Positions 16,466-62,153 are shown, counted from the stretch's first letter. The stretch is DNA of 64,000 nucleotides from Amoebophrya sp. A120 (GCA_905178155.1 CAJINV010000001.1:2125572-2189571); one strand, 5' to 3'. Numbers and translations: made by a program. The notes: generated from the sequence alone by a model not told the origin.

Positions 16466-19400
16466 TCAGTAAACATTTAACAACGCTCGAAACTGACCCG
16501 GAAAGTCTTTCTCTTCGTTGCATTTCGACAATGCAATCCAATCCGCCGCCTCCGCTTCTGTCGTACGAAAATACAGCCGCTGCAACGCCTTCGAAAGCGT
16601 TTCTGGGTCGATATCGCTGTAGGAGTCTCCGGTTGTACGAACTACGCTGGAAGTAGGTGTCGCCGCAGCAGTGTTGTTTGATTTTACAGTAGTTGCGGCT
16701 TTCGTCCCAGGAGCTCCTCCTAGGATCGTACTCGCCGCGCTCGCTAGGTCCCGCGGCGCGGCGTGGTTGACCACGGGATCAAAAATCTCGTCCTATCAAC
16801 TGTAAAAATGTCTGGGTCTGGAAACTCGTGATGCTGGGTGGCGTTTGTTCATGATGAGGCTACAGATGCTGGCTCAGCATGACAAGTTTCTGAGCTCTTA
16901 GGTGTTGCCTATTCTGCATGACAAACTGCGCCTCTGCATCACAGAAAAACGGAGCTCTTGGGTAACGCGCATGACAGATTTAAGAGTCATGCCAGACAAG
17001 CATGACAAACATGAATTCTTCCAGACCCAGACATTTTTACAGTTGATACGTCCACAAATTTCCCTAATTCCCCCGGGGAAACAAACGAGTCGGCGCCGGA
17101 GAGATCCGCTACCAGCGCCTGGGCGTCCTCGACGGAGTAGCCTGCCAGGGCGAGCGGCTCAATCATCCACTCATGCACGTCGGAACCCGTGATCGCGTCT
17201 GTGTTGAAGGGATTTCTTTGATCAGATTCAGATCTTAGACCACATGTATCGTAAAATTATTCATCAATCCATGGAGAGACGGCCTCATCAACCTAACTGG
17301 TGAAAGTTGAAACTCAAACTATTGAGAAGATTTAAGTGCCATCTTTGTCCCGATCCATGGTTCGGAAGAGCGTGCTGTTGCACAAATCCCGAACCAAATC
17401 CGCAAACGGCGAAGGCTGGGGTTTACTTGGCGCGGATACAACGGCAGCAGTGGAGCTGACAGAGGCTTTGTTTTTTCCTAGGAGGTTGACGCTATTTTTC
17501 ACGTTCTGCCCTTGTTGTCCTTGTGCTGCAGACACTAGCTTGGTGGAGGTCGTCTTCGACGTGTTGCACCGATCATTCAAACCGCTTTCTGAGCCGGCTG
17601 GTGATTTCGCGTTTTCCACCGTGGTATCAACTGTGACGCTGGTCTTTACTCCCTTCTTTTGTTCCACTTCAACGCCGTACTTGTGCTCATCTTTCTTTTC
17701 ATCGCTGTTGACCTTCTCAAAGTCCAACTTCGAGACAGAATTCGCGAGTAACGAATTCGCCGAATTTCTGGCACTTACGCGCTTCACCTGTTCCTGCAAC
17801 GGCGTCTCACTAGTCGACTTCACCGAGCGCCGGCCTGTGCTGCTCAGTCGAGCGGAGTTCCGCCCTGCACTTCCCTTCGCGGCGCTACTTTCTTTCACGG
17901 AGATCCGCGCACTTTGTCGACCGCCGGGTTGAGCCGGCACGGCGTTCTCCTTTTCAGACTGGATGCTCTCAGTTGCACATGTTGCTGCTCCATCCCCTCC
18001 TAACTCCGCAGCGAGGTGGACTGGGGCATCACCACCAGCCTCGATGCTCTCGTCTTCCTTCAGAGTACTCAAATCCACTCGAGCGCTCAACCGCGAGGCG
18101 GGCATTGGAGGTTCCGGCGTCTTCACGCTTTTCCTCGGTACTGCACTGCTTGTGTGAGATGAAATCCGCGCTACGGGATTAAAGCTGCCCGTAGAAGTTC
18201 CTGCCAACTTCTTGGCACTGTGGCTTGCACTTTCTACTTCCGGTAGTTCTTTTGAAGCTGCTCCTGTCGACAAATGTCCCTCGGGAATGGCGGGCATAGC
18301 GGCTTTAACACCACTTGCAAAGAGTCGCGGGTTTTTCGGTGTCTGGGAGGATTTTGCTTGCTTCGCCTCCTCCTGTGCTGGACTGGCGGAAGAAACATCG
18401 ACGTAGTCGGGCTCATATGCACTGGAAAAGTATCGCACTCGTAGTAATGGCAGTCCTGCATTGCAAACCAGACTTTCTACCCGAAGTAGCATGACAAGTT
18501 GCATTTTTGTACTTGAGAGAATGTGCCATGCAATTTTTCACACTAGTACGATACTTTTGCAATGCATAGCTCAACGGCCTTCGACACACGGACCATGGCA
18601 GGCGGAATTGACTTTTTTTCTGGGCTATGATCATGCTCTCCTTTCTTCTTCGCAAGATCTTCCCCGTCGCCAACAGAAGACTCACCCGCGTTTTGTAGTC
18701 CCGTAGCTCCTCCTGCACCGCCCTCTCCTGAGCCTGGTTTGGCTGTACGACTAGAAGATTCGTCTGTAGCCGACGACAACGGATGCTGAAGCTCGTCTCC
18801 TGCACAGGGGGAAATATCCTCCTCTTCTTCCTCCACAACCGTTAAGAGGTCCAGTTTCGCCCGCTTGCTTTTTCGCGTGTCGAAAGCGGCTTTATTCATT
18901 CCACGACTATGCTGTCCCTTTTTCGTCTCGCTACCGCTGGTCTCCTCCTCGCCGAAGTCACTCAATGCTTCAGTAGGTGCAGTGAAAGCGCGTGCCAGGC
19001 CTGCGCGCTTCTTGTGACCAGGGGCCAGTTCCTGCGACGATAATTCCGCCTCCTCGTCCTCCTCATATTGGTCGATCGCCCCTAAGTCGTCCGTGGTCGC
19101 CGCACGCAGGATGTCCGACGCGGCTTTTTTCGGTGGCGGATCGGAGGAAACGCGGTTTTTGTCCTTCTGCTTCGCCGTAATCTTCTTGTTGAACAGGCGG
19201 ATGTGCTTTTGCACCATGGACATGCAAACCGTTTGGGACTTGCGCTTGTCGATGGCCGCGGCGTCCACCAGCGGAAGTCCCTCGGGGATCGAAGTGAGGG
19301 GGAGCTGCTGGTGGGTGGACGAGGGTGTAGTAGTTGTCGCGGTAGTGGTGGAGTTTTTCTTCGAGGACTTCCTTGTTTTCGCGGGTGTTAGTGCAGAGGA

Positions 19401-20601: not shown

Positions 20602-21056
20602 GGTTTTTTACGGCTGGAGGTGGACTTTTACAACTCGAGTACTTACTTATCTGATTCCGACAGCACTGATATCTTGACATATATTTATAGTATCATTTTT
20701 GAGCTGCATGTACTATGCCTCCTCTCCGTCCCCCACGCTCGTTTCTTTGTTTTCGCTCAACACGTCATAATACGCCTACAACGCTCCTCTCCACATCTAC
20801 TTACAAGATTGATCATCCCCAGTCACCCGCCACTCATGCAGAGAGATGCCCTTTCCGCTGTTCCGCCCCGGGGGAGTGCGAACAAAAGTCACGCCGTTCA
20901 TTTTTATGTGCGAGTGATTCATTTCTTGAATTGTTCTGCGGCCGCTCGTTTCTTATTCAAAAATTCTACAGCACGCGATGTATTTCTGCCTTTCTTGTTC
21001 CGTGTTTCTTCACGCACTTGCACTATTACGCATTTCGTTCCGCATCTTGCGAGCAG

Positions 21057-27100: not shown

Positions 27101-30100
27101 CTGGGCCGATCAGAAGTACCACCTGGCGCATGTGGTGGTCGCTCTCGCTGTACGCCACCAGCGCCGATTGACAAAGGAAGATTCTTTCGACTCTCTATCC
27201 GCGCAGGAGGACCACGACCAGCATCGCCGGCGGAAGATGAGGGCTGATGTGCAGCGTGAAGGAGCTGCTCTGGACTGCTCGATGACCCACCAACTCCTCC
27301 ACCGACCGCCAGCTCCTTTCGCTGTTGTTCCTTTTGCAGCTCCAGTTCTCGACTTTCGGACCGCAGTCGCGATACGTATTGCTGCAGCCGGCTCTGCTCG
27401 TCCATCAGTGCTGTTAACGCCGTGTTGTCACTCGCGATCTTCTGCAATTTCTCCTTGTACTCTTCCCCGGCCTTCTATCCAGGAAGAAAAACCCACCCCC
27501 ATTCATTTTTTGCATGGCAAACATTATGGAAATTATGCATTTTTTGCATGACAAATTGGATGGGGGTGGGTGTTTTTCCCTGGATACCTTCTTCGCTGTC
27601 TCCACGTCCTGCGCCAGTTGCTGGTCCCGGAGCGCGACCAGCTGCGCGGTCTGCAGTTTCAAATTCTGCACCTCCTGGGACAGTCGTTCCTTCTCGTGCC
27701 GTTTCTCGTTCATAGTCTCCTCCATCTGCTTCTTACTCTCACAAATCTCCTGCTTCGCCTCCTCGAGCTCCTTCTGCGTTTTCAGTTGCTCCTCCTTCAG
27801 CTTTTCTAACAGCGCCAGTTGGTGTTTCTTGTCCTCCTTGTACGTTTTCTCCAGCTCTTCCAATTCCTTTTCCCGCTGCTCCACGCGGTTTAGCGTCGCT
27901 TCCTCCCGCTGCTTCCACTGCTTCACGAGTTGCCGCCGCTTCTCCTCCTCGGTCGTGTCCTCGTCGAGTAACAGGCGCAGTGCTTCCTGCTTCCGCTGCA
28001 CCTTCGCGTCTAACTCTTCAAGCGTTTTCTTCCGCTCTTTCTTCTCATCCTCAAACTGCTCCCGGAAGGATTTCCTTTCGTCTTCCAGATTTTCCCGGTG
28101 CTTTTCCAAATCTCTCTCCCGGTCCTGCAACTTCTTGTTCAGCGCCTGCAAATCCTCTTTCGCCCGATTCAGATCCTTCTCGACCGATAATTTGCTATTC
28201 CTTATTTTCCCCTCGAGTTCCTCTTTTTCGTTCCGCATAGTTTGAATTTCGGATTTCACCGTGGAAATTTCCGCACTTATTTTGCCCTTTTGCGCCTCCA
28301 AATTGTGGATCTCGTTGCTCTTCTTCAACCGCACCTCTTCCAGCGCGGCGACGTTCGACTGCGTGTCCATCGCTGCTTGTTTGGCCTCCTCCGCGGCCTG
28401 CTGCTTCTTCGTCAAATCTTCCTTCAGCTGCGTGCGTTTCCGGGAAAGATCCTCGAAATCCCCCTTCGCGGCGGCGAGCTCGACTTTCTTCGAGGACAAA
28501 TCTCTGTCTAGGTCGTCCACTTGTGTCCAGATAGTTGTCCTCTTCCGTTCCAATTCCAAAATCTCCGCACTCAACACTTTCGCTTGGTCCTGCTCGATCT
28601 GGTTCCGCAAATCTTCGTGCCGTTTCCGCAAATCCGTCATCTCCGCCGTTCTCTTGCTCGCTTCGGTCTCCATCTGGATCTTCTTCGCTTGCAGGTCCTG
28701 CAAAGCTGTGGTGTGGCTGAGCTTCTCGATTTCCAGTTCGCCTAGGGAATTGGACAACTCGATCTTCGAACTTTCCAACCGGTGCAGCTCCTGTTTCAGC
28801 TCCACGCCGCGCGCGTGCTTGCGCTCGTTCTCCGCCACCTGCTGCTCGTACTGACCGGTCAGGGACTCGATGCGCTGCATCAGCACACTCGCCTCGTTTG
28901 TCATGGTGGTCACGTCGGCCCGGGCGTTGTCGCTCTTCTTAGTGTAGGCTTCAATTTCCGCTTCCTGCTCCTCGACGCGAGATTCTTGCTCTTTGACCTG
29001 ATAGAAAAGAAACGAATGCAACAGTTGTAAGTAAGTACTTCCGTGTGCTTCTCCTTTTCTGCACCTGCTGTAACCGTAGATGTGCTGGAGAACACAATCT
29101 CATTCCCTGTGTCTATTTCATGCAAAAGAAAAAAAAAGTCATGTAATTGATGCAACACAAAAGAGCGAAACTATACCTTCTCCTTCAGCTCCTCGAAATG
29201 CTTCTCCAGCTCTTCGTATTCTTGTTCTAATTGCTTATTTCCTAATCCGAGTTTGTTTATCCTCTCCTTGGTTTCCTGCTTTTCCGTCTCCAAGTGCTCT
29301 AAACTGTATCAAAGGAAAAAAGTGTTACAGTTACACATTTGTTGGAATTCTAGCATCACAAGTTGCTCTGCATGGCAAAAGTAATGCGCAGACTATAAGG
29401 GAAAACACACGCGAAATGACGCTAGCAAGCTCAAGCATTTCCTGCATGACAGAGGTTGTCTGTCTTGCTTGTCTTGCGTCAGGGTGTGTAACTGTAACAC
29501 TTTTTTCTCACGATAAACTGCTCTGCAGCTCCACTGCTTCCTTCCGCATTTCCTCCAGCTGATTCTGCTTCTTGTCCAAATTTGCATCAACAGCCGCCAT
29601 CCGCTCCTTCCGCTGCTCAAACTGCAGCTCAAATTCCTCGAATTTGTTTGCTTGCTCCGCTTCAATTTTCTGCTTCTCGAAGGAAATTTCCTGCAGTTTT
29701 TCCTGCATTTTTCCCAACTCCTCCTCCGCTTCCGTTCTTTTCCCATTGATCGCTTCCGTTTCTTCCTTGAATATGCATTGCAAATGTATCTGGGTCTGGA
29801 AGAGTGCAAGCTTGTAATGCGCACTTCATAACACAAAAAAGTCTCTCATGCATAGGCAGCAAAAGTTGCCCTCTTTCTGTCACCAAAATGGGGCATTTGT
29901 CATGCGGATTCGGCATTGCGCAAGCTTTTCGAAATCTGTAATGCTAGAGCTTCCATGCTATACCTTCTGTGTCATGCTAAAGCAGCATGACTCTTCCAGA
30001 CCCAGACATATTTGCATTTGATATTCAATTGGTGGATTTTATTTTCCTCCTCCGCGTATGCCTCGACCGCCTTCGACAGCATGGCCCGCTGCATCTCCAG

Positions 30101-33534: not shown

Positions 33535-35366
33535 TCATTCGATGTCGCTCCCGTCGGCGCGCTCGGTCATGGCGTGCACAGCTTGCTTGGCCCAATCCTT
33601 GGCGCTCCAGTCTTTCGGCACTGCACTCATGGCCAGCACGTGCTTTCGGAAATCGTCTTCCTGGTTCACTATTGGGGCGATCTCCGCTGCCTTCGACCTG
33701 GTACATAGTGAAGTTTCCAAAGAAAGCATTTCAGCAGTTGTTGTGCAGTGCTTCGATCGCGATTATTAGACCACTTAGAACTACTAGAAGCAGCTCCAGA
33801 GCAGAAATATCGGAAAATAAACGAAGCGGATTATTTTTATCTTTTTCTTCTTGCAAATCATTATCAAAAATGTGATCATCAAGCGGTAGTCACAACATCA
33901 AAAAGGTACCATGCCGTGAAGAACTGCGCGAACGCAGACTTCAGATTGATGATTTCGCGCTTTGCCGAGCTGCCGATTGCCTCGCTGCTGTAGTTTCCTA
34001 GCTCCTTCTATGCAATGTAAATTTCCTGTACATGTACAAAATGCATGACAAATTTCGCTACCTTGCAGAGCCCAGCTTGTCATGCTGCACTAGGATTGGA
34101 GGCAAGTTTTGTCATGCAGAAACCACATTTGTACGTGTACGGGAAATTTACTGTGGATACCTTCAGGGTGGCGTTGGCTTCGTCCACCGGTATTGGCTTG
34201 ACTAGGGTTTCGTTCGCGAGCTGTGGGTGTTGGGATTTATTGTACAAAGTGTTTTCTATCTCCTGCACCTCGTGCTTTACCCCCTCGAAATATCGCTCGG
34301 TCTCGTCTCTCGCGAGGCGCTCTCTCTGCATCTCCTGCTGGTACTCCACATAGCCGGATATGGCCAAAAGCTCCTGCCACGTCTGGTCCCGAGCCCGGTC
34401 TGTGTCCAGCCTGTCTTCCAGCGAATTTTCAAAGTCACTTGTTGTTGGAGGCGGGTTCTTTGCTTGATCATGCACTGTTGTGTTACCTGCTGCGGTCGTG
34501 TTACTACCATATTTACTTTCAAACACGATGCTCGTTTGTTCCCCATTGGCCCCCATGACTTCTATTCTCGGTGTCAGACCGACGGAGACCCGGCCTAAAT
34601 TCATCATCTGCGAGCTTTGCTTGGATGAGGGCCGGTTCCCAGCCTCGACCATACTGATGCCGGCGTAGAGATCAAAAAACGCGGCGTTGGTGCGCGGAGA
34701 CGTCGACAATGCATCCGCGTTTTCCGACAAAAGCTGCCGCTGCACAATCTCCTGCTGCCGGGCAAGTAATTCCGCGATCTGCTTTTGGTGAATCGCCAAA
34801 ACCTGCTCCAAATCCTCCGTGATTCCTTGCTCCTGTTGCTCCCCCGGCGCCGCAGTGGTTCGGCTCTGTGCCGTCGCTCGTGATAATTGCTCAGTCTCTC
34901 TTTCATCGCTCCGGAAGACCACGTCTTGGTTGGGTATTTCAGTCGGGGAGGGGAGAAAACTGCTGGGATCGAACGAACCTGGGGGCAGGCCGCCTCCAAA
35001 TTTATTGTTTTTTACCTCTGAAACCATGGTCGCCTGTGCCTGCGCGGCGGCCTCGGCCTGCGCAGCCTTCTCGGCTTCCATCGGCGCGAACCGGAGTTCT
35101 CGGTTTTTCTCCGCCACCTCCTGCATTCTTGACCACTGGTCCTTCCAAAAGCGTCCAACCTCCGTCCTCAAGTCCCGCTCGTTCTCCCGGTGTTTTATCA
35201 TCTGTGGATTGGATTTTTGTGTTTCTGCTTTCAACACTTTCAGTTTCAGCATACTGTTCAAATTTTCACGAGAAACCAAGGACGTCGTGGTCGTGTCGCA
35301 ACAATATGATTGTAGTTCACCAGCACAAAAGAAAAGTCCATGAAGAAAGAACAAAACATGCCTCAT
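33535..35366 (-). CDS. Hypothetical protein, possible signal peptide, spliced
   Basis: 428-aa ORF continues as TLKELGN after removing 34009-34159; last exon (ORF 33535-33729) tentative. Confidence 0.5.
34009..34159. mobile_element. Introner family E (GT-AG compatible)
   Basis: DR ccttc; similar to 14053. Confidence 0.9.
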
Positions 35367-37006: not shown

Positions 37007-40000
37007 TTATGCCCAAAGTCGTATCATGTCCTTTTGCCCCGTTGCTGCAATGAGTTGCAGCACATCTGCGGCCTGGGCGCAGTTTGCCAACGCCCGGTTC
37101 ACTCGGTCCGGCTCATCCACGTGTAGTCGTACCCAAGAGATCAACAGCTGCTTCTTCTCTTCTCCCTTCATCGCCGGTTTTCTGTTGAAAGCCACCTCTA
37201 ACGAGCCCGCGTCGGACAAGATTTCGAAGGGGCGCACAATCTTAATGCCCTTCGATTGCGTACTTGCGACCAGGACCATGTTGTTCGGCATACTCAAGCT
37301 CATCGGAATTCCGAGTGCGCGGAAGTTAGGCACCGACTTGATATTCACGGCGCTTTGTAAAGAAGGCGGCGCGGTGGCCTCTTCGTTATTTGTAGTTCCA
37401 TCGACGTTCTTGTCGCCGTCTAAAAGTAGATCATCTTCCGACTTCCGCACCGGTTGTTGTACTGCTGTAGCGGTTCCACCAGCCGCCGTTGTGGGGTCGG
37501 TTTTGACCGCCTGGTGCACCCGGGTCCACAGTTTCGCCTTCAAGGAGGTGAGCATCACGTCGCTCTCGTAGCTCCACCACGCGCAGGCTGGCTGGTGCTT
37601 ATCAACTGTAAAAATGTCTGGGTCTGGAAGGATGCAGAGATTTGTGATGCAGCTTTGGCATGACCCCTGATGTCTGTGATGCATGCCCTAGCATCACAGA
37701 TTGAGAAATGCCCTCTCGCCGTCGCAAAAACTGGACCTCTTTTGCTGTTCATGCAATACAGATTTTTGTAGAATCCAAATGCAGCATCACAAGTTGCATC
37801 CTTCCAGACCCAGACACTTTTGCAATCCATAGTGCTTCCGGGCCATCAACTTCGCCCGGGCGTAGTGGTCGCCCTGAAACACCCCCCGGATCACTTCCCG
37901 CACCGCTTTGACGACAATCACCGCGCCGTGCTTTTTCCACACACTGCCCGTCCCCTCGGCCACCTCCGCGTCCGTGTACGCGCCCAGGTGCATTTGCGCG
38001 GATCGCCGCCGCTTCCGCTCCTTCACGCCCTCGTTCTCCTTTCCCCCGACCGCCAGCTTCGCGGCGCCCTGTAGCATGGCCGGTGCGCCCTTGGACCGGC
38101 GGCCGATAGGCGCCAGCAGGTCCGCGTGGGAGGGCCTGCCGCCTTGGTTGTCCTGGGACGACGCCGCGCCAAGCCCCACGGACGTCTGTGATCGCCGGAA
38201 CTTAGCCTTCTGCGCAGGATTTTCCGAAGTAGAGTCGGAGGACTTATTTTGCTGTCCCGTGGTGTCTGTGTTGTCTTCCGCAAAAGAAACCAGCCGAGCA
38301 TCGCTCCCTCCAACATCTGCTCCACCCCCCGCCACCTGCTCTTTCACCTGGAGCCCCTTCTCCAGGTGCCACAGTAGCTGCAGCGCCCCCGGCGGAATGC
38401 GCAACACGTTTTGCGTGCCGTCGTATCCGACGGAAACCAAATCCCCCGCAGTTTCGCGCCCGTACGGCCGCTCGTACCGGGCGCAGCGCACACTCAGTAG
38501 GTTCTGGAAATGGGAGTCCGAGTCACCATCTACTTCTGCGTGGAGAGTTATCAAGTCCGACCCGGTTACTTCACTGTTGCGACCGCCCGTCGTGGCCCCC
38601 GCACTCGCTGCAACCTGGACCCCGACCCGGTGAATTCTCGCCATCATCTCGCGTTTCGTGCCGCCGGAAAGCCAAGTCGCGTCCACAATCTGGTCCTCCA
38701 GCTGCTCCAGGCTTTTTTCAACCTCTTCCTGCACTCGAAGAGATATTGTGGAGGGACAGTACCTGATATCAGTTTCGTTTTCGATCAGAAAGATCATTAA
38801 GATGCGGAGTTTCAACATATCTTCACGAGTCGTGGAAGTAGAAACAGCAAGCATGATGAACATCACCACTCAATTAAATCTGAACGATGGTATACTCGTC
38901 GGAAGTAGAGCGTACGTATATATAAAATAAAGTGAAACACAAATAGACGATAGGGATCATAACATAAATACTTCCTGGCATAAATTTGGTCCAACTCCGG
39001 CAAAAAGTATTTCTGCGTGAGCTGCAACGCCGAGAGCTGCAGGTCCTTTTTCATTTCCCGCGCAACCAAGTACCTCAAATACAGCTCGACGTCTGCGGCT
39101 TCCAGTTGCGGCAGCAAGTACGCCACCCGCTGCACACACTCCGGGTGCTGCACCAGCAACGTAGTGCAGGCACTACTCCGCCCTTTTGCCGCGACCACGC
39201 ACTCGGTAACGAAATCGGTGAAGTTGAAGCAGGGAGTACTCGCCTTTTTTATCAAATGCAAATATGTCTGGGTCTGGAAGAGTCGGGGTTTGTCATGCAC
39301 ATTTTTCATGACCCATGAGGTCAGTGATGCAGGTCCTAGCATCACAGATTTTTTGAGAGCTTCTTGATGCTCATCACGCATGAGAAACGCACCTCCGCGT
39401 GCCAAGAGCTGGACCCTTCTTCCTGCTTATGCAACACAGATATTTTTAGAATCCGCAGACAGCATTACAAGTTCCACTTCCACTCTTCCAGACCCAGACA
39501 TTTTTGCAGTGGATATTTTTCTTCACGGCTTTATTGTTCCCTCCACTTCCACCGCAGCAGCCCATCCGCGCAGGCGGCGCAAATTCCTTTATGGAAGCGC
39601 TTGACGTCGACGCGGAGGCTTTGGCGTTCATCAGCGCGACCATGTCGAATGCCTCGTCCGCGACCTTCTTTTGCCAGGTCACTGGGTCCGTTCTCACCGG
39701 CGCGATCCCGCTCTGCGTCTGCCCAACCGCCTCGCGCAGGCTGCGCTGCAGCTGGATGATTTTCGCCGCTAACGGGGCGGGGTTGAAATTCCCTTCGTGC
39801 AAGTCCTGCTGCTCGCTCGCGAACGCCGGGCCAAAGGCAAAACTACCCACCCAGGTTAGGACGTCGCAGATAAACTGCTCGTCCTCGACCTCGTGGAGGT
39901 TAGACGCCACCTCCAGCTGCCTGGTTGCTAATGATTTTTTATCCTCAACTGTGTTCACCGCCGCCCGGAAGAAGGCGACAATCCCGTGCTCCTGCCCGAG

Positions 40001-40375: not shown

Positions 40376-41039
40376 TTTCTACTTTATTCGGATTGGGCGA
40401 CCACGTGGGCCCCTGTTTGTTGTTTCTACTTGGGGTTTAATGTGGTAAAGACGAGAGTAGATCCCTCGATCTCATAGACATGATGATACTGTAAGTGTAA
40501 CTACTTGACATAGACATGAGGTGATGGTAGAATGATAAGCTGAAAGAATGGGGAATAATGGGAAAATCTCTGTTCAATCGCAAATAGACATGTAATTTCT
40601 TTATGAAATAGATACGACGAAAAATCGCAGAACGAAGCATAGGAACTTGCCATTTTTGCACGAAAACTTTGAGAACGATTACACCGAGAAAAGTTGTTGT
40701 GACCACAAAACAGAACGAGACGCACTGGCACTTAGGTTTTGTACGGACCGAGGTACAAAGGGACGACTCCGAGTGCGCACCGACAGCATCAATTAACACG
40801 CCTTTGGAATTTAATGGCTGAGCAGTGAAGAGGCAAAAACCGATGGAAAAGTTACTAGCGTCTTGTGCTAGCTGTAGCGACAACCGAGAGGACTTCAATC
40901 TATCATAGCTCTACCGAACGAGAAAGGTGATGACGTTGGCAGTGTGCCAGCTGGTGGACTTTGTCAGTTGTGAATGAAAATTTTTCAGCTGCAGACTTGG
41001 CTTTTATTCCTGTACTAGCAAGCTGCTCGGACCTACTTA

Positions 41040-42692
41040 TCACAAAGAGACAAATGCAACTTCAGGATCTCCCGTGCATTCGCGAATGAATGCGCAAAAA
41101 GTGTCTACCGGCAACGCCAGCGTGCTGTGGCAGGCGCAAGGGTGGAATGCCAGTCGGTCGTAGCACTTCGCATTTTCATCGAGAAAGTAACTAACTTTCG
41201 GGCGAGCTTGGCAAGAACTGCCAGTCGTTTCATCATCTTCTCCACCGATACAGTCGCGGTTAAACAGCAGTCCAAACGGCGTCACACTCCTATGAAAGCC
41301 TCAGGTTGGAAATCCTCAAAGTGGAAATAATTTGTAATGCAAAAAAACGACTCCAGTTGAAGCGCCATTTGTAGTCGGCGCATGACAAATTTCCCGGGCA
41401 CTCGAAACGTGTCTGTCATGCTAGTTAGGCAAAGGGGTGCCCTTCTGTCGTGCTAATCAGCAGTCCAATTCTTCACCCCTAGCAGGACAATAGTCGGCCT
41501 CCATTGTGTCCTCTGCAATACAGTCTTTTTTGCCTTGCATTTCATGCGCCACAAATTATTTCCACTTTGAGGATTTCAACTCTGAGGCTTTCATAACTCC
41601 CCGGCAGCAGTTCTAACGCCTGGAGCAGGCTGTCGCTGCTGGCAAAACCCAAGCCGCCACTTGCAGCACCCGGGAGTTTATCAACTGTAAAAATGTCTGG
41701 GTCTGGAAGAATTCATGTTTGTCATGCTTGTCTGGCATGACTCTTAAATCTGTCATGCACGTTACCCACGAGCTCCGTTTTTCTGTGATGCATAAGCGCA
41801 GTTTGTCATGCGGAATAGGCAACACCTAGGAGCTCAGAAACTTGTCATGCTGAGCCAGCATCTTTAGCCTCATCATAAGACGCCACTCAGCATCACAAGT
41901 CTCCAGACCCAGACACTTTTACATTTGATAGAGTTTGAGTTTTTTCAATTCTATTTTCGTTGACGCCACGGCGGAGAGAAGGAAAAGGTTCTTCTTTTTA
42001 TCCTTCAGCAAAAGATTTTTCATCTCCGCGGTTTTTTCTCCCAAATGGGGAGAAAATCGCCTTGCTTGGTCACAGGTGTACACTGTCGGGTGAAGGGCGA
42101 GGGTGAGATTTTTCGATTGGGAAAAAAAGTTTCTCTCCGAAAGCCAGTTGAGACACAGTCTTACGCCTTTGTTGAGGTGGAGTTGCGTTTCGAGTGGGGT
42201 GTCCTGTTCGTCGTTCTTCAGCGATGCACAGGACAGATCAACGGTCAGGGTCGTTTCGTACTGCTTGCCCAAATCTTGGAAGAGCTTTACTATTTCGGCA
42301 TCGTTCAACATCGCAGCTGCGTGGTTGGTGCTATCACAACAACTCTGAAGATGAAGACCAACTCCGTTGCTAGACGAGCCGTTTATTTCGCGCACTGACG
42401 TCCTCGAAGATGTCGCTCGCAAGTCGGCAGCTGCAGAGGAAGAGCACGTGGAGGTCGAACGCCCAACGGCAGGCGAAGCAAGAGCGACTGCGGTTGGAGG
42501 TCCCGTGCGATCATGCTCCTGAAGCTGCTTGCAACTGTTCTGTGGTTCATCATCCGGGACGATTGATGCAGGCGCAATTGGAGGAAGGTAGAAGGCAGTG
42601 TCGGACAAAAATCGAAGGTGCTCAATTTGTAGCCGACGCTTGTTGCAGCTCCTTGCAGCGTCAACATCTTCAGCTTCACACGAAGGAGGCAT
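41040..42692 (-). CDS. YbaK/ProX-family aminoacyl-tRNA editing domain protein (PrdX/ProXp-ala-like)
   Basis: HPTVYT, KNLLLKDKKKNLFLL, then LGFASSDSLLQALELLPGSVTPFGL and AFHP after removing two introners. Confidence 0.85.
41291..41595. mobile_element. Introner family F
   Basis: DR actcc; long TIR tatgaaagcctcag…aaatcctcaaagtggaaataatttgt; restores LPGSVTPFG. Confidence 0.93.
41679..41930. mobile_element. Introner family A (inverted relative to 16794 and 43504)
   Basis: DR gagtt; interior is the near-exact reverse complement of 43504. Confidence 0.95.
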
Positions 42693-43469
42693 TTTGATGT
42701 TGGAGTGTTTTCTTTTCTCTCTAGCAAGCCAAGGAAGAGTATTTGTTCAACAGGTTATGTACAGCAAGTCGTGCATGTGGAATTTTTACAAAACTTACAT
42801 TTGGCTTTTCAAGATCGATGCCATCGCGACAGCCAATTAGACTGAGTCTGAGATCACTTTAAAAAGAAAAGGCAATAAGAATAATGGAGCAAGACAGATG
42901 TTGATCCATCACAGAAGCGCTGACACAGGTACGTTGATCCAAATCCAAATCCTCTACGACTGCGAATCTGTGTGAGATGTTGTAAATCTTCTCTGTCTCA
43001 TCTGTACCCTACGTACCTGTTGTAGATGAGATCTTCATACAATTACAGTTACAAGTTACAACAGACGAGAAACGAGGTCGAACAAGAAGATTAAAGGTAC
43101 TAACATTAGATCGTCAAGAACATTCTGATCGTCACAAACATGATCCTTGACACCAGCATTGATCTTTTATTTCAATGATGCGGTTTCTTCCGCATCTTCG
43201 ATGGAACACGAAGGCCAAAAAAGCCCTCAGATGGACAAGAACTCGTCCTCGCTCTACTACTCAAAGCTCAAAATACCAAGCACAGGCTTCAACGATATCG
43301 AGCAGGCGCGTTTCGCTCTCGGTTTTACTCCTTCGCAAGATAAAACAAAGGCACGCCATTGGCATCGCCTTTTAGTTTTTGTTTTTGTTCCTCCAGCACC
43401 ACCATCATCCAGCAGCGCGGCCACATTTTTGAATGATAGATACTTACGCAAAGAACCAATACACCAGCC

Positions 43470-46400
43470 TCATTCTTCTTGAAAGTTGTCGTATTCCGCT
43501 CTTTATCAAAAGTAAAAATGTCTGGGTCTGGAAACTTGTGATGCTGGGTGGCGTCTCATGAGGAGGCTACAGATGCTGGCTTAGCATGACAATTTTCTGA
43601 GCTCCTAGGTGTTGCCTATTCTGCATGACAAACTGCGCTTCTGCCTCACAGAAATACGCAGCTCTTGGGTAACGCGCATGACAGATTTAAGAGTCATGCC
43701 AGACAAGCATGACAAACATGAATTCTTCCAGACCCAGACATTTTTACAGTTGATACTCTTTTCTGTGGGCACCATTTTTTTTTCCGTCGTTGGTGTTCCT
43801 GACCAACGGGGTAGGTTTTGAATCTTCCGTAATCTCTATCGTGCGTGTAGGAAACGCACACCTTGTCCAAGAAAAAAAACTGTGTTAGTGTTACTTATAC
43901 TTTCCTTGGCTGACAGCATCACAAGTTTGCTCTACATGACAGCGAAAACCTGTCATGCGTGGCTTGTAAGGGAAAACACACATGAAATGAGGACTGCGTG
44001 GCTGTCTGGCATGACAGGTGTAACTAACTCTGTTGTATGTTCTGCATTACAAAGTTGATACACTTACACAGTTTTTTTCTTGCATACACCTTGTCGGGCG
44101 GCCCGCTTTCCCGTTCGTGCACGTTGAAGTCGTATTCGTAGGTTTCGCGGTAGCTCGTGCCCCGGTTCCACAAAATCAGGTTCATCCGCTATCCTGAGTA
44201 AAAATGTCCCCACACCATAGTCAAGATGGGGATCGGCTAGACAAATCCACAAGTTTTGGCTGTTTTGCATGACAAGTTTGGATTCGTAGTGTAGTGCTGT
44301 TTGAGCTAGCTCAGCAGCATCACAGATCTAGCACACCGTGTTGATTGGAGCATGACAAATTGCAAATCACGAATAGAAACTGCTTCTCATGGGGCTCCGC
44401 ATGAGAAACATTTGATTTTCAGCATGCAGATTTGCATTACAACTATGGGGTGGGGACGTTTTTAAATAGGATATCCGCTCCCCCTCCGTGATTTCCATCG
44501 CACCGTGTCGGTGCCTATCCTGTGCAAAAGTATCGCATTCGTATAAATGCTAATGCAAGTCCTGCATTACAAATATTTTTCTCAGGGTAAATCAGCATGA
44601 CAAACGATATTTCTCACGCTGAGAAAATTATTTGTAATGCATTTATACGAGTACGATATTTTTGCAGTTCATAGTGCCGCCCGAGATGCATGATCGCGGT
44701 CCCCTTTTTGTTCGTGTAGACGCACTGGTTTTTCCGGTGGTCCTTTTTTCCCATCTTCCCGCAGAACCGCACCTCCGAACCGGAGAACTGCCCGATTCCC
44801 AGCGCAATGTTGATCGTCACGTCGGAATCGTCGGTGTGCATGTCCTATGAAATGCAAAAGTGTCTGGGTCTGGAATGTCATGCTGTTTTTGGACTCTGAA
44901 AAAATTTGCATTGCATGACCAGCAAGAGGGATGCAGTTTTTGCTACACGGACAGGGCATTTCTCATGCGGAAGGTACATTAGGAAGCCCTCGAAAGGTCT
45001 GCGATGCTAGGTCAAGCATTGCAGGCATCATGGGTCATGAGAAATATGCATGACAAATCTTGCATTCTTCCAGACCCAGACACTTTTACATTTGATATGT
45101 CCAGATGCGTGTCCTTCCGTGGGCTGTACTGCACGATGAAAGAGTGATGGCCGTCCCAATTCGACCCCACCGCGCCGAACCGCGCTTGGCCGAGGGGGCG
45201 GAGCAGGTTTTGGATGGCGTCCATCAACGGTTCCAGCCCGACGTCGTTGAGTATTACCCCGTAGTTGTTCATGCTGTTGGGTTATGCAGTGCAAATATGT
45301 CTGGGTCTGGAAAGTTGGAACTTGTGATGCTCACTGCCAGTCACACAAAAATCTGTCATGCATGGGTAGCAACAGCTGACATTTTTTCGCCACACTGAAA
45401 GCGGGTTTCTCATGCAGAGTAGGCGTCGTAAAGCGTTTGCAAAACCTGTGATGCTAGTCCATGCACGCGAGACCTTCACCTTCTGGGCCGTGCCAATTCT
45501 GCAATACAAGCTTCCAGACCCAGACATATTTGCACTGCATATGGGCCGCTGCACCTTCAGCTGGCTGTCGTGGACGCCGCGGATCTCGCTGACCAACAGG
45601 TCGCAGATATCCTATGCACAAACGTCCCCACCTCACAAGTCAAAATGGGAAATCTGCTAGACAAATCAACCAGCTTTGGTTGCTGCTCGTCACAGATTTA
45701 GCACACCATGCTGATTCGAGCATCACAAGCTCCGCAACATGACTAGAAAATGCTTCGTTCTCACGGAGCTCCGCATGACAAACTTTTTTGGCATGCAGAC
45801 TTGCGTGAGAACTTTGCCGCGGTGGAAACGTTTTTACAGAAGATAGCAGAACTCGTCCGTGAAGAGCGGGAACGAATACACGTTCGGACAACCATATCCC
45901 ACGAAAAAACTGTTTCACTGTGATGGTTTTGCAAGATCTGCATCACAAGTTTGTTACACATGACACAGAAAATTTGCCATGCGCGTTTTCCAAGGGAAAA
46001 CACGCTTAAAAAGCCATTGCGTTGCAGGTGTAGCAAGACGAACACTTTGGTGTTTCGTTCTCTGCATCACAGGTTCACAGTGAAACAGTTTTTTCTTGCG
46101 ATAAACCATCCGTGGCGTTCTGCAGAAACCGCTCGTTGATCAGCGCTTTGACCTCTCGTTCGGCAGAGAGAGGAAGGGAGGGACGAGAAAGCGAAGCTGA
46201 TGTTGATGTTCTTGTTGAGAGGCGGGCGGCCTCCTCGTGGTCCGTAGTGGCAGCAGCAGCCAAACCGCTGCTCGTGATTTCAGTTGCGGAAGTCATAGTA
46301 TGTTGACCTGGTGCAGAAGTAGACGCCGCTCTCCTCAGAATCTGTTCGTATTCTTTCTGAAACTTGCGGAACTCCGGGTGCAAATATTTCTCCGGAAAAT

Positions 46401-48843
46401 TGGACTGGGGAACAACGACCGACGCATCATGGGTTTTACTTTCATCTAGTACACCTGATGAAGCAGACCACGCCGCAATCTTGTTTATGTTTTGCCCGGA
46501 TCTTGAAGAGGCTCTTGCAGCAGCCAGAAAGTGTTCCTTCGCCTTCGCCAAAACATACTCCGTGTCGTCCGGAATCTGTACATTGAAGAAATCCTGGTTT
46601 CTCGCATACAAGGCCGGGTAGACAAACAAGTTCTGTCTCTTGTCAAACCAGGCCTGCGCGGCGTGCTGCTTCACCGTTGACCGCAGCGCGTCCGCCCGCT
46701 GCTCGGTCAAAAAGGGCAGGGACAGAAGTGCGGCGTCGATGTAGGTGAGAAAGCAGAGCGTCTTTTCCAAAGCATCGGCCAGGGTAAACCGGTAAGGGAC
46801 CGCTAGGAAATAATTTTCTATTTCTTCTTGGTCGTGTCGGTGGTCTACTGCTCGTGGTGGCTCACTTGAGGTTGACGCCACTGCTGCAGCTGATGTCCTG
46901 CTTCGTCCGGCAATTGAATCTTCACGCTCGTGGTGCTCGAAAGCGAGAATCCGGACTGTCTTTGACTTTTTCTTCTTTTTCGACGAACTCTTTTTCTGTC
47001 TTTTCACCGAGTGTTGCGATGTTGTTGATGCGTTTACCTTTTCGATATTGCCTTTCTTGGAAGTACTTGCAGCAGGAGCTTCTTCTTGTCGTTCAACATC
47101 AACCTTGACTCTCTTCTCCGAGACGATCTTGGTCGTTATCGTCTTCAGCACCTTCCCTGCACTCCGGGTGAAAAATACCTGCGGAATCACGTGCGCGTGG
47201 CGGTCGTCCCGCTGCTGGCCGCCCAGGAAGGCGTGCTCAACGTTGTTGTGGATACTGACCCGCGGGGCGGAAAACGGGTAGTTGCGGTTGAACCGGACTT
47301 CCACGTTAAAAGTCAAACCGGCATAGTAGTGCATCATCTTATGAAAGTGCGAATAAACTCCCCCTCTTCCACCTCATTTGTCATGCTTAGCAGACTGCGC
47401 GACTAAAGCCCTGGGGGGTGCGGGGTCCGAGGGGTGCACTGAGCACTGCCCGGAACACCCGAACATGCCCCGCGACTGGCACAGGACCAGCAACACAACT
47501 ATTATCGTCGATCTCAGTTTGTCGATCACAACGTAGCTGCGAAGCCGTCCATTCATTTGTCATACAAAGTCCCAACTCCAATTGCTACCTTGTGGCGCAC
47601 CTGTTTGCGTTGCAAACTCTGGAAGCCCAAAGCCAAACAGTAGGACTACACTTCTCAGCGCAATAAACTTGTCATGCACAGCGTCCACATCATGTGTTGG
47701 CGTTTGTATTGCTGTTCGTGCCTTACAAATGACAATGAGCGGTGTGGGTAGCTGTGGACTCTGATACATCTTCTCCCGCCACCACTCTGTGATGATCGGC
47801 CGGTTCTTGCCCGCAATCCTCGTGTATCCTGTGCAAAAGTATCGTACTCCTACTCGTACTAAAACTAATCGCAATCACGCATCACAAGTGAGTCTCCTTG
47901 TGAAGCTGAATCCGGCACATGACATCAAGCTCTATTTGTCATGCTGAGCTAATTTTGTATTGCGGAATTACTATTTCTAGTAGCACGTCGGTACTTCTGC
48001 AATTCATATCGTGGTCGTGCTCGGGTTTCCGTTTTTCCGATTCCGCTCCACGACCGTGAGAAACTCGTTCGTGTTCCGGTTCGTGTACCCCGGCTCGGGG
48101 ATCTGTAACGAGAACCGGATCGCCCACGGTCCGGTTTGTGGCGTCCCGGATTCCGTCACGTCGATCATGGCCGGGTTGCCGTTCATGCTGACCGCTCGGT
48201 ACCGAACCAGCTCGTAGGACCGGGGAATGAAAAGCTTCCGCAGAAGGGAGTGGCTCGCCGGGGAATTATCTTCATCATTTTCGGGCTTCTTGTCCTGCTC
48301 AGTGCTATTTGTTGTACTTGAAGTAGTTCTGGGACGAGGACGAGTCGAGAAGATTTCCAACAGCTCTCGGCCCATCGCCTCCACCGCGATTCGCGCGTCA
48401 CCGTGGTCATCGTCGTAGTAGATCTCAGCGGAGGACTTCGTCGTTCGTTCGGCCTCGAACAGCCGCCGCATCTCGTCGGCCGGGCATTCCGCGGTCTCCT
48501 TGCAAACTGCCCGGATCTCGGCAAAGTTATACTGCCAGTCTTCGCTTGCTGAAGAGGATGGGGTCGGCGGGGACGATGCCGCAGAAGCAGACAAGGTGGA
48601 TTCTTGTGATGAACCCGAACTGGCTGCGAGGACCGTCGTCGTCGACTGAAAATGAGCCAGCCAATAAAGCAGGTGAAGGGTTCTTACCAGCAAGAGCCCC
48701 GGCAAAGATGAAGTCGTGTATGCGAAGCTGCCACCACGACGGGGTGATCCGGCACACATCTTCCGCGACTGTTGTGGTCCGCCCATCCTCTCTCTTTGAT
48801 GTCCTACGTAGAAAGACGAACCTGCGGTGGTTAGACAGTTCAA
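43470..48843 (-). CDS. UBC/UEV-like domain fused to OGFOD2-like 2OG-Fe(II) oxygenase; 11 exons, 10 introners
   Basis: Spliced: GLTFNVEVRFNRNYPFSAPRV…; VYSFPLFTDEFCD; RPNSMNNYG; HLDMHTDDSDVTINI (HxD); HLGRHRHGA (distal H); ERMNLILW; CVSYTHDRDY; AEYDNFQEE-stop. Start codon uncertain. Confidence 0.85.
43504..43755. mobile_element. Introner family A
   Basis: DR ctctt; near-identical to 16794. Confidence 0.95.
43864..44086. mobile_element. Introner family D-like (TGT left end; GT-AG compatible)
   Basis: DR cacct; TIR caagaaaaaaaactgtgt; restores PDKVCVSY. Confidence 0.9.
44190..44473. mobile_element. Introner family C
   Basis: DR tccgc; restores GERMNL. Confidence 0.92.
44516..44673. mobile_element. 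Introner family B
   Basis: DR gtgcc; restores GRHRHG. Confidence 0.93.
44846..45097. mobile_element. Introner family A
   Basis: DR tgtcc; restores HLDMHTD. Confidence 0.93.
45283..45541. mobile_element. Introner family A
   Basis: DR tgggt/tgggc; perfect TIR tatgcagtgcaaatatgtctgggtctggaa; restores QRPNSMNNY. Confidence 0.93.
45608..45845. mobile_element. Introner family C (diverged)
   Basis: DR gcaga; restores DEFCDL. Confidence 0.88.
45895..46103. mobile_element. Introner family D-like
   Basis: DR aacca; TIR gaaaaaactgtttcactgtga. Confidence 0.9.
47340..47766. mobile_element. Introner, weak TIR
   Basis: DR catct; TAT…ATA ends; internal ttgtcatgc motifs; restores REKMMHYY. Confidence 0.75.
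47825..48008. mobile_element. Introner family B
   Basis: DR tcgtg; restores STTTRIAG. Confidence 0.88.
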
Positions 48844-58643: not shown

Positions 58644-59421
58644 CGATCTTGATGAAGGAGACGCAGACGTTTTTTTATTTCACGAGCGTTTTCTAGTACG
58701 GGAGACCACTTCTGCTTCTGACCGGTAGGCCGCATGAAGATCTTCTCATCGTCGGTAACAAATAGCTGTTGCCCTCAAGTACATCAGCGACGGCTCAGCG
58801 ATCCTTTGTGCTCAGATGCATGCTGTGATATCGAAAAATAAGGACCCCTCTGTCTCCCGAAAAGTGGACCCTCGCTTTACGATTTTTCACTCGTCCGAAC
58901 TCTTATACTATTACTACCCCATCGCTTCGCAGCCACGACCCCGGAACTAGCAGTCTAGAACTTCCGCACGATGACAAGCAGGAACATGATCAAAGAGGTG
59001 TCACTAGAGATGATTCCATGAGATTCATTTCTCCAGACCAGTGGATAAAAACCACGAATTGACTACAGCATCAGACTTACTTCCCAGGTCGTCAGGACGA
59101 CCGGGACTGCACACAGAAGATTGAGAAAACTTCCGCACCAGACAGGTGGTGCCTCCAACCGTTGAATACAGCGGCATCAACAATTAAGATGTTCATGTAC
59201 ATGTAGCAGACACATTCATGCCGCGCTTCTTGAACGAAATATGGTTGGCCATTCACCACACATATTTACCCCGGATGCAGATGGACTGCTCAACACATTT
59301 ACTATTAGGGCTCGCGCTGCTCCGGCTCTACTTCACAAAAAAGAAAAACTCCTCCTGCAACTGCATGAACATTTCATCTCGAAGGCCGGGACTAGATGTT
59401 GATCATCTTCCCAGCTGCTCT

Positions 59422-62153
59422 TCACTGCACACCGCACCCGGCGTCCAGTTCGGGTTGCCCCTTGCGCTTCCGCAAGATATTCCGCATCTCCAGGAGTGTA
59501 CCGGGCTGTTGCCGCAGAATCACGTTGGTGAAGGTGGTATCCAAGAAAAAAAACTGTGTATAGTGTAGGTCTTTTCTTTGGGAAAACAGCATCACAAGTT
59601 TGTCTGCCATGACAGGCAAAACTTGTGATGCGCAGATACGAAGGGAAAACACATAGGAAGCGAGCCGATCATGTACGTCGAGCATGACAAGTGTAAACTG
59701 TTTTGCATTTTCTGCATCACAGATTTACACTTAGTACACACTTTTTTTCTTGCATAGGTGGCGGGGATGTTGCCCTTGAAGTCCAGCGACGAGATGTAGG
59801 TTGCCTCCGTGTTCCCCCGCCCATTATGCACCGAACAAAGTGGCACAGTTACACATTGTGTTGCAAAACATGCAAAACAGACGACCTCTGTCATGCGATA
59901 AATGCTTAGAGGTCTCGTTTCGTGTGCGTTTCGCCTTATGAATATGATCTCTGCATTACAAGTTTCCTCCGTCATGCGAGGCAAATTTGTGATGCTGAGA
60001 ATTCAATACAAATGTGTAAGTGACACTTTTAGCCTTGGATACCCATCCGCCTTCAGCCAGTAGCCGCTATGCAAGCCTCAGCATGGAAATTCTCATCAAA
60101 GTGGATGAGCTAATTTGTGCTGCATGAAATGCGACACCAAAAAGACTGCATTGCAGAGAACGCAATGGAGGTCGACTATTGTGCGCCTACTGGTTCAGAA
60201 TTGGGCTCCTGGTTAGCACGAGAGAAGGGCACCCCTTTGCCTAACTAGCATGACAGACACGCTTTGAGTGCCCGGGAAATTTGCCATGCGCCGACTAGAA
60301 ATGGTGCTTCAACTGGAGTCGTTTTTTTGCATTCCAAATTATAATTATTTTCACTTTGGGATTTTCCACCCTGAGGCTTTCATAGCCGCATTCCCGGAGT
60401 TCCGCCCGTACGACCCCCGGTTTTTCCGGGATCTATCAGATGCAAATATGTCTGGGTCTGGAAACTTCTGATGCTAAAATGTGGATGATGGAAACAGTTC
60501 CGAATGCAACCCAGCGTGACAACTTTCCAGAACGCGTTCTCATAGGCAATCCGCATGAGAAGCTGCGTTTTTGCATGTCTGTGCAAAAGAGGCTGCGACT
60601 TTTGTTGGTCTATGCAATATAGATTTTCTAAGTATGGAACGCTAGCCTTACAAGTTCCAACCTTCTCCAGACCCAGACACTTTTGCAATCCATAGGATCG
60701 CCTCGTCGGCCACCGACTGCGCCACCAAAACGCAGCCAAAGTCCGTCGGGTGCCACGCTCGCAGTAGGCACAGGTCCCGCGGCTGCACAAACAGCGCGCC
60801 CTTGTACGCCAAGTGGGCCAGATCGCACCCGGCTGCTTGCGTTGATGTTCTTGTTGATGCGCGTGTATTAAGAACTGCGTCGTTGTGGGCTACTGTGGTC
60901 GACTGTTCATCTTTACCATCATCTCCGCCTGCTGCGCCTTCGTATTGCACATGAACCCTGCCATACTCCATCTGCGAATCCCAGAGTTTCCGGCGCTCCA
61001 AATCCACGATCAGTCCCAGGATCTCCGCCGGCTCGGTTTCGGGAAACACCAAGCGTCCACGCACCGCGATGATGTCGTCTATCAAAATGAAAAATCTCCC
61101 CTCCCCATATTAAAACGGAGATTTGTGTAGCATGATTTGTGATCACAAGTGGCGTTGTCATGCTAGAAGGGAAGAGATTCGGATTGTATTGCTGGCTGGC
61201 GCAGGAATGGAAAGCCTTGCGTCTTCAGCATGACTATGACGGCAGTAACGTGCCCAACCCCTAACTTACCCATGGGGGATAAAAAAAAAATTTCGGTTTA
61301 TCTTATATAGATAATATAGATATTTATATAAGCTACCTAGTTGAAATAGATATATAAGCTCAGTAGCTAGAAAAGGCGTTTTTGAAGGCTTCCACGACGC
61401 TACTCCGCCGACATCCAGCCTTCAAAAACGCCTTATATACATAAGCTATTAAGCTAACTAAAAACAAAGCATTTTCGCTAGCTATTTAATATATAACTAC
61501 CTTATTTACACCGAAAAAAAAAAACTGTATCCCTTTGGGTAACTAGCCTGTTGGGCACGTTACTGCCGTCATAATGACAAGAAGCAACTGGAAACGGGAA
61601 ACAGCGTGACAAATTGCCTCCAAACGAGGTAGCAACCGCGTCTCTTGGCCTTCTGGCAATACAAAGCGATTTTTGTACTCAAATACAGCAACACAAATTC
61701 CGTTTTCGATATGGGGAGGGCGGATTTTTCTCCACAATATCGTCCCCGACGTATTTTTTGCCGACGTACCGAGCGATCTCGAGTTTTTCGGCGGAAATCC
61801 TATTGTTCAAGGGCTTGGCGCCAGAACTCGATGAAGTAGAACTAGTTTGTTTTTCGCCGCTCTGGAGCACCATCCAGTCATCGTAGGATTCCGCTTGTTT
61901 CTCCAGTATCCTGTGCAAAAGTATCGTACTCGTATAAATGCTGGTCTTGCATTACAAATTTCTTTGTCAAGGCAAATCAGCATTACAAATTTTATTATTA
62001 TTTCTCATGCTGAGAAAATTTGTAATGCATTTATACGAGTTGTACGATACTTTTGCAGTTCATATCCAGAAAATCCAGGCAGCCCTGACGAACGGCCGCG
62101 AATTCGGGAGACAACGCGGTGCTGATGGGGTTCGTGCTGGTGGGAGGAGACAT
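59422..62153 (-). CDS. START (lipid-binding) domain protein; 7 exons, 6 introners
   Basis: Spliced: DDWMVL, DDIIAVRG, RKLWD, VQPRDLCLLRAW, SVADEAIPEKPGVVRAELRECGYWLK, LDFKGNIPATFTN. Confidence 0.85.
59538..59756. mobile_element. Introner family D-like
   Basis: DR ggtgg; similar to 43864; restores IPATFTN. Confidence 0.9.
59825..60041. mobile_element. Introner family D (inverted relative to 29307)
   Basis: DR cccat; restores KADGRG. Confidence 0.87.
60068..60384. mobile_element. Introner family F (inverted relative to 41291)
   Basis: DR gccgc; restores RECGYW. Confidence 0.92.
60434..60694. mobile_element. Introner family A
   Basis: DR ggatc; restores EAIPEKP. Confidence 0.92.
61235..61573. 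mobile_element. TIR element nested inside an introner
   Basis: Perfect 24-bp TIR tatgacggcagtaacgtgcccaac; DR atgac. Confidence 0.9.
61266..61542. mobile_element. AT-rich MITE-like segment, possible third nesting level
   Basis: ttaccca…tgggtaa ends; flanks ctaac/ctagc; internal 18-bp IR aaggcgtttttgaaggct (61373-61390 / 61417-61434). Confidence 0.55.
61907..62064. mobile_element. Introner family B
   Basis: DR tccag; close to 44516; restores LDFLEKQ. Confidence 0.93.

Follow-up and report, generated by a model that had tools for sequence, protein, structure and literature searches.

A 64-kb window of the Amoebophrya sp. A120 genome (64,000 nucleotides; GCA_905178155.1, CAJINV010000001.1:2125572-2189571; positions are counted from its first letter) contains about 42 elements that begin with TAT, end with ATA and are flanked by 5-bp target-site duplications (TSD). 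These inserts are the introner elements (IEs) already described for this strain (PMC7789003; Farhat et al. 2021). Their insertion duplicates 5 bp, they lie in both orientations at a ratio of about 50:50, they are removed exactly either way round, and the dinucleotides at their junctions are free. While the elements themselves are known, exact removal in either orientation without a rule for the junction letters is an apparently unreported property. The signal for this removal likely resides in the self-complementary element ends.

Inverted copies and their removal from transcripts

The preliminary description of this DNA had named nine copies, and at each of the nine coordinates an element of the TAT...ATA type proved to start, bearing terminal inverted repeats (TIR) and flanked by an exact 5-bp TSD. 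For pairwise evaluation, 40 nt were trimmed off each end and the interiors aligned both ways, the maximum of 300 shuffles being a score of 29. As described there, the family A1 copies 16794..17048 (TIR 20/20) and 43504..43755 are near-identical in the same orientation (interior score 290 vs 17; global identity 94.1%), and the third A1 copy, 41679..41930, is their reverse complement (16794/41679 in opposite orientation 287 vs 18; 43504/41679 93.7% identity). Inverted pairs were likewise found in family F (41291..41595 and 60068..60384; 315 vs 21, 83.9% identity as reverse complements), in family D (29307..29515 and 59825..60041; 68 vs 20, 69.9%) and between the family A2 copies 39250..39515 and 44846..45097 (116 vs 23, 72.0%). 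Two further A2 elements complete this group: 37600..37831 is oriented as 39250, and 29772..30023, whose TSD has one mismatch, lies opposite to 37600 and 39250, as does 44846.

Four sequencing runs (X1, X4, X5 and X8) were compared over window positions 27000-46500 only, with 16794, 59825 and 60068 lying outside this region. We regard the X1 and X4 contigs as spliced, the RNA nature of both runs being guessed, because they skip five ordinary GT-AG introns on the minus strand, which served as internal control (28998-29176, 30593-30761, 31389-31836, 33698-33909 and 38763-38971; four of the five start with GTAT). X1 record 3 joins 37594 to 37832 and thereby skips 37595-37831, corresponding to 232+5 nt, i.e., element 37600 and one TSD. 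In X4 record 8, positions 41285 and 41931 are separated by 78 letters, which is the length of the exon 41596-41673 between elements 41291 and 41679; the record thus lacks both. With 39250 (X1 record 3), 34009..34159 (absent from X1 record 2), 29307 and 29772 taken out, the record lengths close on a GT-AG intron, and none does so with the elements in place; X1 record 1 has a length that requires the absence of both 29307 and 29772. A further contig piece begins at 27587, directly behind element 27476..27586. All seven testable elements were absent from the spliced contigs with exactly one duplication, six by such arithmetic and one by adjacent pieces; contigs of this kind show the presence of the spliced form, not its efficiency.

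Removal in either orientation, as claimed in the preliminary description, was thus recovered for family A2, with 29772 missing from the contigs as well as the opposite-orientation 37600 and 39250, and the inverted A1 copy 41679 is missing too. Inverted copies are accordingly not left unspliced. Within the near-identical trio 16794/43504/41679, RNA support exists for 41679 only; the start of X4 record 10 would be 43281 with 43504 taken out and 43538 with it retained, and either fits. X5 behaves as DNA, keeping elements and ordinary introns alike. The raw RNA run X8 yielded 92 partial reads at TIR sequences and no exon coverage of the locus. About 80 of the X8 reads, at 45066-45098, match the family-A-type TIR only and then continue into other sequence, as from an unspliced copy of a locus or strain outside the window.

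Host genes and orthologous proteins

Wherever tested, the host genes proved to be on the minus strand, in agreement with the preliminary description; this applies to the restored longest open reading frames (ORFs), to all Pfam matches (obtained from 34 minus-strand exons only) and to the five RNA-supported GT-AG introns. After removal of the elements with one duplication each, minus-strand frames of 945 codons (10 elements), 802 codons (5), 607 codons (7), 379 codons (2) and 323 codons (6) were obtained. The longest belongs to a gene at 43473..48843 with an OGFOD2-like 2OG-oxygenase domain (PF25238), a gene at 41043..42746 with an aminoacyl-tRNA editing domain (PF04073, YbaK-type) hosts 41679 and 41291, and a gene with a START domain (PF01852) containing six elements, among them 60068 and 59825, extends over 59425..62255. 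Several Pfam matches remained under the curated cut-off because the exons were scanned singly.

Three public proteins named Amoebophrya sp. A120 (P0001, P0003 and P0006) are 100% identical to window exons. The orthologue P0004 is collinear at all ten junctions of the oxygenase gene, and the A25 orthologue P0005 is collinear across them except for a one-residue gap just before 45895; at 44846, just before the HxD motif, P0003, P0004 and P0005 are all collinear. P0002 is collinear at both junctions of the tRNA-editing gene (41679 and 41291). The joined START protein is identical to P0006 across 60068 and 59825, a model that belongs to the same organism's annotation and is no independent proof. 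For 16794, a 176-codon open minus-strand frame with a coding score of 18 vs 3 forms the sole basis for its removal; a homologue search with this gene yielded a single, unrelated HEAT-like repeat protein (P0007), which does not span the junction.

The statement that the elements must be removed holds in so far as 28 of the 39 top-level elements would shift the reading frame, and it is unproven for 43504, which lies eight codons before the stop of the oxygenase gene and is retained in P0003.

Orientation and an empty site in a close relative

Copies in a close relative were collected by a pattern scan of one other assembly, comprising at least 176 loci (~640 estimated) with long flanks at 80 only. 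Those copies are assumed to be spliced because they interrupt coding-like frames. An exact 5-bp duplication is present in 129 of 166 elements among the loci listed. Of these elements, 140 passed filters and 113 were given a host strand by a codon model, which was correct for 38 of 39 window elements. The orientation of the 113 is 62:51 (p=0.35), and the strand calls agree in 32 of 34 same-contig pairs, of which 16 share the orientation and 16 are opposite. A broader scan detected at least 232 elements; leaving aside 49 without strand call and 23 without family, the per-family evaluation suggested in the preliminary description gave 76:84 among at least 160 copies of seven families (p=0.58). 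An orientation skew seen within the window (B 4:0, C 3:0, D 6:1, G 2:0) was not repeated among the listed loci of the relative (5:8, 7:10 and 3:3; G not found).

One locus of the relative (L125:1-630), 96% identical to window positions 9999-10359, bears a family-A-type element with its 5-bp duplication where A120 has an empty target site (10294..10298). The element at this locus is a recent, strain-specific insertion.

The insertion phase of 213 elements (window and loci L001-L176) is uneven (107:61:45, p=5e-7), and the TSD is mostly centred on a codon, which would correspond to phase-0 introns if the cut precedes TAT. T is scarce at TSD position 4 in the relative (16 vs 33 expected), a deficit that was not repeated in the window (9 vs 7).

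Element set and anatomy

A scan for TAT...ATA ends, TIR and flanking duplications had returned 40 candidates. Four weak ones (15584, 33440, 35407 and 50807) were excluded before counts were made, as were four alternative pairings from an exact scan, while three elements from this exact scan and one found by hand were included, resulting in a working set of 40 elements; two decayed ones were added later. The 40 elements account for 10,005 bp of the window, measure 111-660 nt, contain stop codons in most frames and have no coding capacity. Seven families are repeated within the window with 2-7 copies each; the lettering A1, A2, B, C, G, H is that of the present analysis. The combination of exact TAT...ATA ends and an exact 5-bp repeat was found 36 times in the window vs 3-13 times in 20 shuffles, and the TSD measures exactly 5 bp in 31 of 36 window elements, lengths of 3, 4, 6, 7 or 8 bp being found in at most one of 36 each. 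Over the 40 elements, both ends follow the common profile TAT(C/G)nnn(T/G)G(C/T)AAA, with A at end positions 11-14 in 28-39 of them. TAT was a selection criterion for the window elements; among unselected ends of the listed relative loci it is present in 68 of 72.

The A120 IEs are described as having an inverted repeat (IR) of TAT, seven variable bases and then at least three A, with direct repeats (DR) of 3-5 nt at the exon/intron borders (PMC7789003). This IR layout, the direct repeat, the repeated families, the absence from mRNA and the non-canonical junctions were all found for the window elements. They equally display the attributes of MITEs (non-autonomous TIR DNA transposons), namely TIR, a TSD of fixed length, small size, multiple copies and both orientations. 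No transposase was detected among the 34 window exons scanned with Pfam, and PMC7789003 reports that no cognate transposase was found in A120; TE-like (transposable element-like) ORFs in some A120 introners are reported in PMC12130899. Rfam covariance models for self-splicing or other RNA families gave no match at gathering score in the whole window, and viral contigs contained no TIR match.

Splice signals and terminal stems

As a consequence of the 5-bp duplication, six cut registers are indistinguishable in sequence. Allowing all of them, GT-AG is possible in 3 of the 40 elements, GT/GC-AG in 5 and GT/GC/GA-AG in 8, so that even in its most favourable register a U2-type GT/GC-AG boundary is available to 5 of 40. 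The remaining 32 elements offer no GT/GC/GA-AG register at all, including the RNA-supported 37600, 39250, 41679, 29307 and 29772. At 39250, the transcript carries AAAAA on both sides, so that neither junction can include a G, whichever register is chosen; 44846 allows GA-AG or AT-AC, and in 27476 and 34009 a GT-AG reading is possible via the TSD. Among the listed relative elements, GT-AG is possible in 8 of 113 vs 5.4 expected, which is the level of chance. No conventional branch motif appears to be common to the 40 elements: CTRAY-like sequences close to the 3' end were present in nine of 40 in sense direction and in four of 40 in antisense direction, although CTRAY may not be the branch consensus of this host. 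The possibility that each orientation possesses its own conventional branch point and GT-AG boundaries, which the preliminary description had named as its own refutation, was therefore not borne out.

Ten elements were folded. In nine of them, the predicted pairing probability of the ends is 0.65-1.0 on both strands.

Two specific proposals were rejected. GCA(T/A)NAC as general branch point is disfavoured because 14 of 40 elements do not carry it in sense direction and because it is commoner antisense (73 vs 49). If the 5' cut preceded TAT and the 3' cut followed ATA by one base, the message would gain a codon; the observed skip is 237 nt, and the orthologues have no extra residue.

The motif GCA(T/A)NAC(A/G) itself is ~20-fold enriched in elements of unrelated families (122 occurrences in 10,005 bp of elements vs 33 in 53,995 bp outside), often at a spacing of 31-40 nt. 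It is more likely a subterminal transposase site than a branch point, and a candidate for a transposase or protein binding site shared among the families.

How the elements may be removed

It had been argued that a polar design of donor, branch point and acceptor cannot easily explain removal from both orientations. In this form the argument is not supported: TIRs of ~30 nt provide both orientations with the same 5' (TAT..AAA) and 3' (TTT..ATA) sequences, and as the ends are inverted repeats, a polar donor/acceptor code within the TIR works equally well in both. The further conclusion that the signal must be symmetric and excision structure-guided or non-standard is upheld in placing the signal in the ends; stem and sequence, or spliceosomal and other removal, are not distinguished by the result. 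Given palindromic ends, orientation-blindness is not very surprising.

With slightly better than even confidence, we favour a reading in which the host's spliceosome no longer adheres strictly to GT-AG and recognizes the element ends instead, guided by their pairing. According to the folding model, the two TIRs would form a terminal stem whichever way the element lies and draw the two duplications together. Cutting would take place within the duplications, probably a single base ahead of TAT, with N|UAU replacing the G|UAU at the start of the organism's ordinary introns, while a U-run 11-15 nt from the 3' end may set the 3' cut together with the stem; the element interior and its polarity would not be read. 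N|TAT is a natural relaxed donor in so far as four of the five ordinary introns begin with GTAT. T at +2 is common to the nine most frequent non-canonical junction types of A120 (PMC7789003, Table S4), a pattern that may nevertheless reflect aligner habits, and the first T is retained at the two decayed 5' ends in the window. U2, U4, U5 and U6 as well as 83 of 89 spliceosomal proteins are reported for these strains, and 15% of the canonical A120 introns are reported to have the same IR/DR layout (PMC7789003).

A number of observations weigh against relaxed spliceosomal removal. U1 is reported as not found in these strains (PMC7789003), and both splice sites would be hidden inside a long stem. 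Euglena introns bounded by TIR are released as circles, supposedly with the help of other factors (PMC11282704, PMC12501133). The 5' and 3' ends are equally conserved, deviating from TAT in 2 of 34 and in 2 of 38 cases among the free ends of the relative, giving no sign of a polar reading, and G is not in excess at TSD position 5 or 1. Regarding the stem, element 59825 is predicted to pair weakly (0.31-0.33, the weakest terminal stem of the ten folded), and the TIR match is only 9-12/20 in six elements still found within intact ORFs; the apparently removed 55057-55373 starts with TGC. Furthermore, the public A120 model P0003 reads into 43504 and stops inside it, which is either an annotation miss or true intron retention; the last eight residues of the oxygenase match P0004 and P0005 only with 43504 removed. 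Finally, no branch point, lariat or cut register was observed.

In Table S4 of PMC7789003, the A25 junction types all start with TT (its IR starting with TTA) and the A120 types with NT; both fit G-T-A with a free first base.

A possible but less probable explanation dispenses with the spliceosome. A duplex-recognizing endonuclease would cleave the TIR stem at its base, and the exons would be joined by a ligase. No dedicated enzyme for such removal is known to us. This mechanism would account for the lack of any sequence requirement at either junction, the equal conservation of both ends, a stem predicted on both strands and the missing common branch motif, and it is in line with the reported absence of U1 (PMC7789003) and with the circles and paired ends of euglenids, where, as for diplonemids, it has been proposed (PMC11282704, PMC12501133, PMC12621601). 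It leaves aside that TAT equals positions +2..+4 of four of the five ordinary donors of the host, that poorly pairing elements are nevertheless found within intact ORFs and that canonical introns of the same IR/DR layout exist (PMC7789003). Extended further, A120 might possess a second, polarity-free mRNA repair pathway, either a stem-recognizing endonuclease-ligase or a radically rewired U1-less spliceosome, removing any TAT...ATA hairpin whatever its orientation, its interior or the bases flanking it; we consider this rather doubtful. If true, a whole transposon superfamily could insert into exons at no cost, and the excised elements would be circles instead of lariats.

It is improbable that each orientation bears ordinary but cryptic signals, with a branch point per strand and near-canonical ends. 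GCA(T/A)NAC(A/G) resembles a branch point and lies at most 90 nt from both ends in 14 of 40 elements, and eight elements allow GT/GC/GA-AG. Against this, 14 of 40 elements, among them the orthologue-supported 45608 and 45895, do not contain the motif on the transcript strand, 32 of 40 elements and five RNA-supported ones lack a GT/GC/GA-AG register, and GT-AG stays at chance level; cryptic conventional boundaries are thus largely refuted.

The skipping of hairpins between short direct repeats by reverse transcriptase is a known cDNA artefact. In this scenario, which we rate as very improbable, the element would stay in the mRNA and be tolerated or bypassed in translation. We know of no precedent for ribosomes efficiently bypassing inserts at tens of thousands of positions. 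Hairpin and direct repeat form the classic layout for such jumps, the insertion phase is uneven (107:61:45) with the 5-bp duplication always containing one whole codon on each side, and all RNA evidence, here and in PMC7789003, is cDNA-based. The main contigs, however, lack all seven tested elements, and the proteins of genes with as many as ten elements still resemble their orthologues.

Hardly credible is excision at the DNA level with transcription from element-free templates: the transposon-derived DNA elimination of ciliates, with its TA-bounded internal eliminated sequences, shares TA-containing ends, TIRs and exact restoration, but the single-copy X5 contigs enter the element ends on both sides at a depth of ~45 and retain the ordinary introns, and no exact excision was found among the joints listed (15 of 1,326).

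Relation to known introners

The IEs of Amoebophrya A120 and A25 as published agree with the window elements in the TAT-starting IR, the A-run, short direct repeats, a size of ~240 nt, non-canonical junctions and RNA-seq support, and a hairpin model has already been published for them (PMC7789003). The paper leaves the cut register open and gives repeats of 3-5 nt, whereas we found a strict 5 bp, an empty site and an orientation of ~50:50. In the parts of it available, "orientation" is used of gene blocks or genes, and the orientation of elements relative to the host gene is not addressed. Within the open-access literature we found no report of orientation-blind removal in Amoebophrya; Figs S19-S25 of PMC7789003 could bear on cut register and orientation, and the datasets of PMC12130899 and PMC9860276 may include orientation calls for A120.

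Introners in either orientation are reported for Polarella glacialis and Aureococcus anophagefferens (10.1101/2020.10.14.339549). Those are likewise MITE-like and form introns both ways, but use G-starting donors and AG acceptors provided by the element or the duplication and exhibit an orientation bias in simple two-way classes, neither of which applies to A120. The non-conventional introns of euglenids and diplonemids are similar in paired ends, direct repeats, lack of GT-AG and a presumed MITE origin, with the pairing of intron ends shown to matter in Euglena and predicted in A120 (PMC12501133, PMC12621601, PMC11282704). The Euglena code of CAG...CTG at fixed offsets plus a purine at the start of the next exon is partly polar and releases a circle (PMC12501133); CAG/CTG was not found in the window elements, whose end profile is TAT(C/G)...AAA. 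In Fritillaria borealis, non-canonical introns also derive from transposons with TIR and TSD and are handled by an adapted U2 spliceosome, with a preference for AG-AC/AG-AT ends and exonic TAC, in contrast to the free junction letters of A120 (PMC11282704).

How at least 60% of the Amoebophrya introns are removed without GT-AG is a question standing since 2021. An exact removal blind to orientation and junction narrows the signal to ~30 terminal bases and their pairing and excludes the interior and the flanking exon letters. Opposite near-identical copies (43504 and 41679) and copies whose two duplications differ at one base (14053, 14784, 29772, 45283, 51320, 54354 and 55057) represent a natural experiment on efficiency and cut register, rendering this open splicing question directly testable. 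The finding also explains the saturation of exons by such elements (~10 kb of the 64-kb window) and the faulty gene models in this region.

Further elements within the window

In the aldehyde dehydrogenase gene, removal of five elements (12674-12909, 13582-13726, 14053-14223, 14436-14714 and 14784-15079) leads to the 802-codon ORF, with PF00171 on successive exons. Element 18416..18568 was identified by the TIR/TSD scan and ORF restoration. Eight further elements of the oxygenase gene (43864-44086, 44190-44473, 44516-44673, 45283-45541, 45608-45845, 45895-46103, 47340-47766 and 47825-48008) are indicated by the ORF and collinear orthologues, and in the START gene 59538-59756, 60434-60694, 61080-61739 and 61907-62064 by scan, ORF and P0006. 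ORF continuity only points to 51320-51657, 52391-52609, 52784-53027, 53102-53448, 53489-53750, 53816-54273, 54354-54565 and 55436-55729, as well as to the degenerate element 55057-55373, which begins with TGC instead of TAT.

A nested element with its own 5-bp duplication and an AT-rich interior (61235-61573) resides inside 61080-61739; the outer element is still skipped in model P0006. The degenerate elements 2771..2979 (TSD with one mismatch) and 55057-55373 each have one decayed end, yet removal with one duplication restores the frame in both cases, and the two decayed 5' ends in the window retain the first T. With 55057-55373 removed, the ORFs 55369-58679 and 51120-55055 become a single gene containing an internal repeat. 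At 55791-55937, a minus-strand ORF contains a long His-rich low-complexity run, and the weak Zip Pfam match there is probably compositional. Within the oxygenase gene, 46105-47817 encodes a weak ubiquitin-conjugating-like segment (PF00179, below cut-off), which is conserved in both orthologues.

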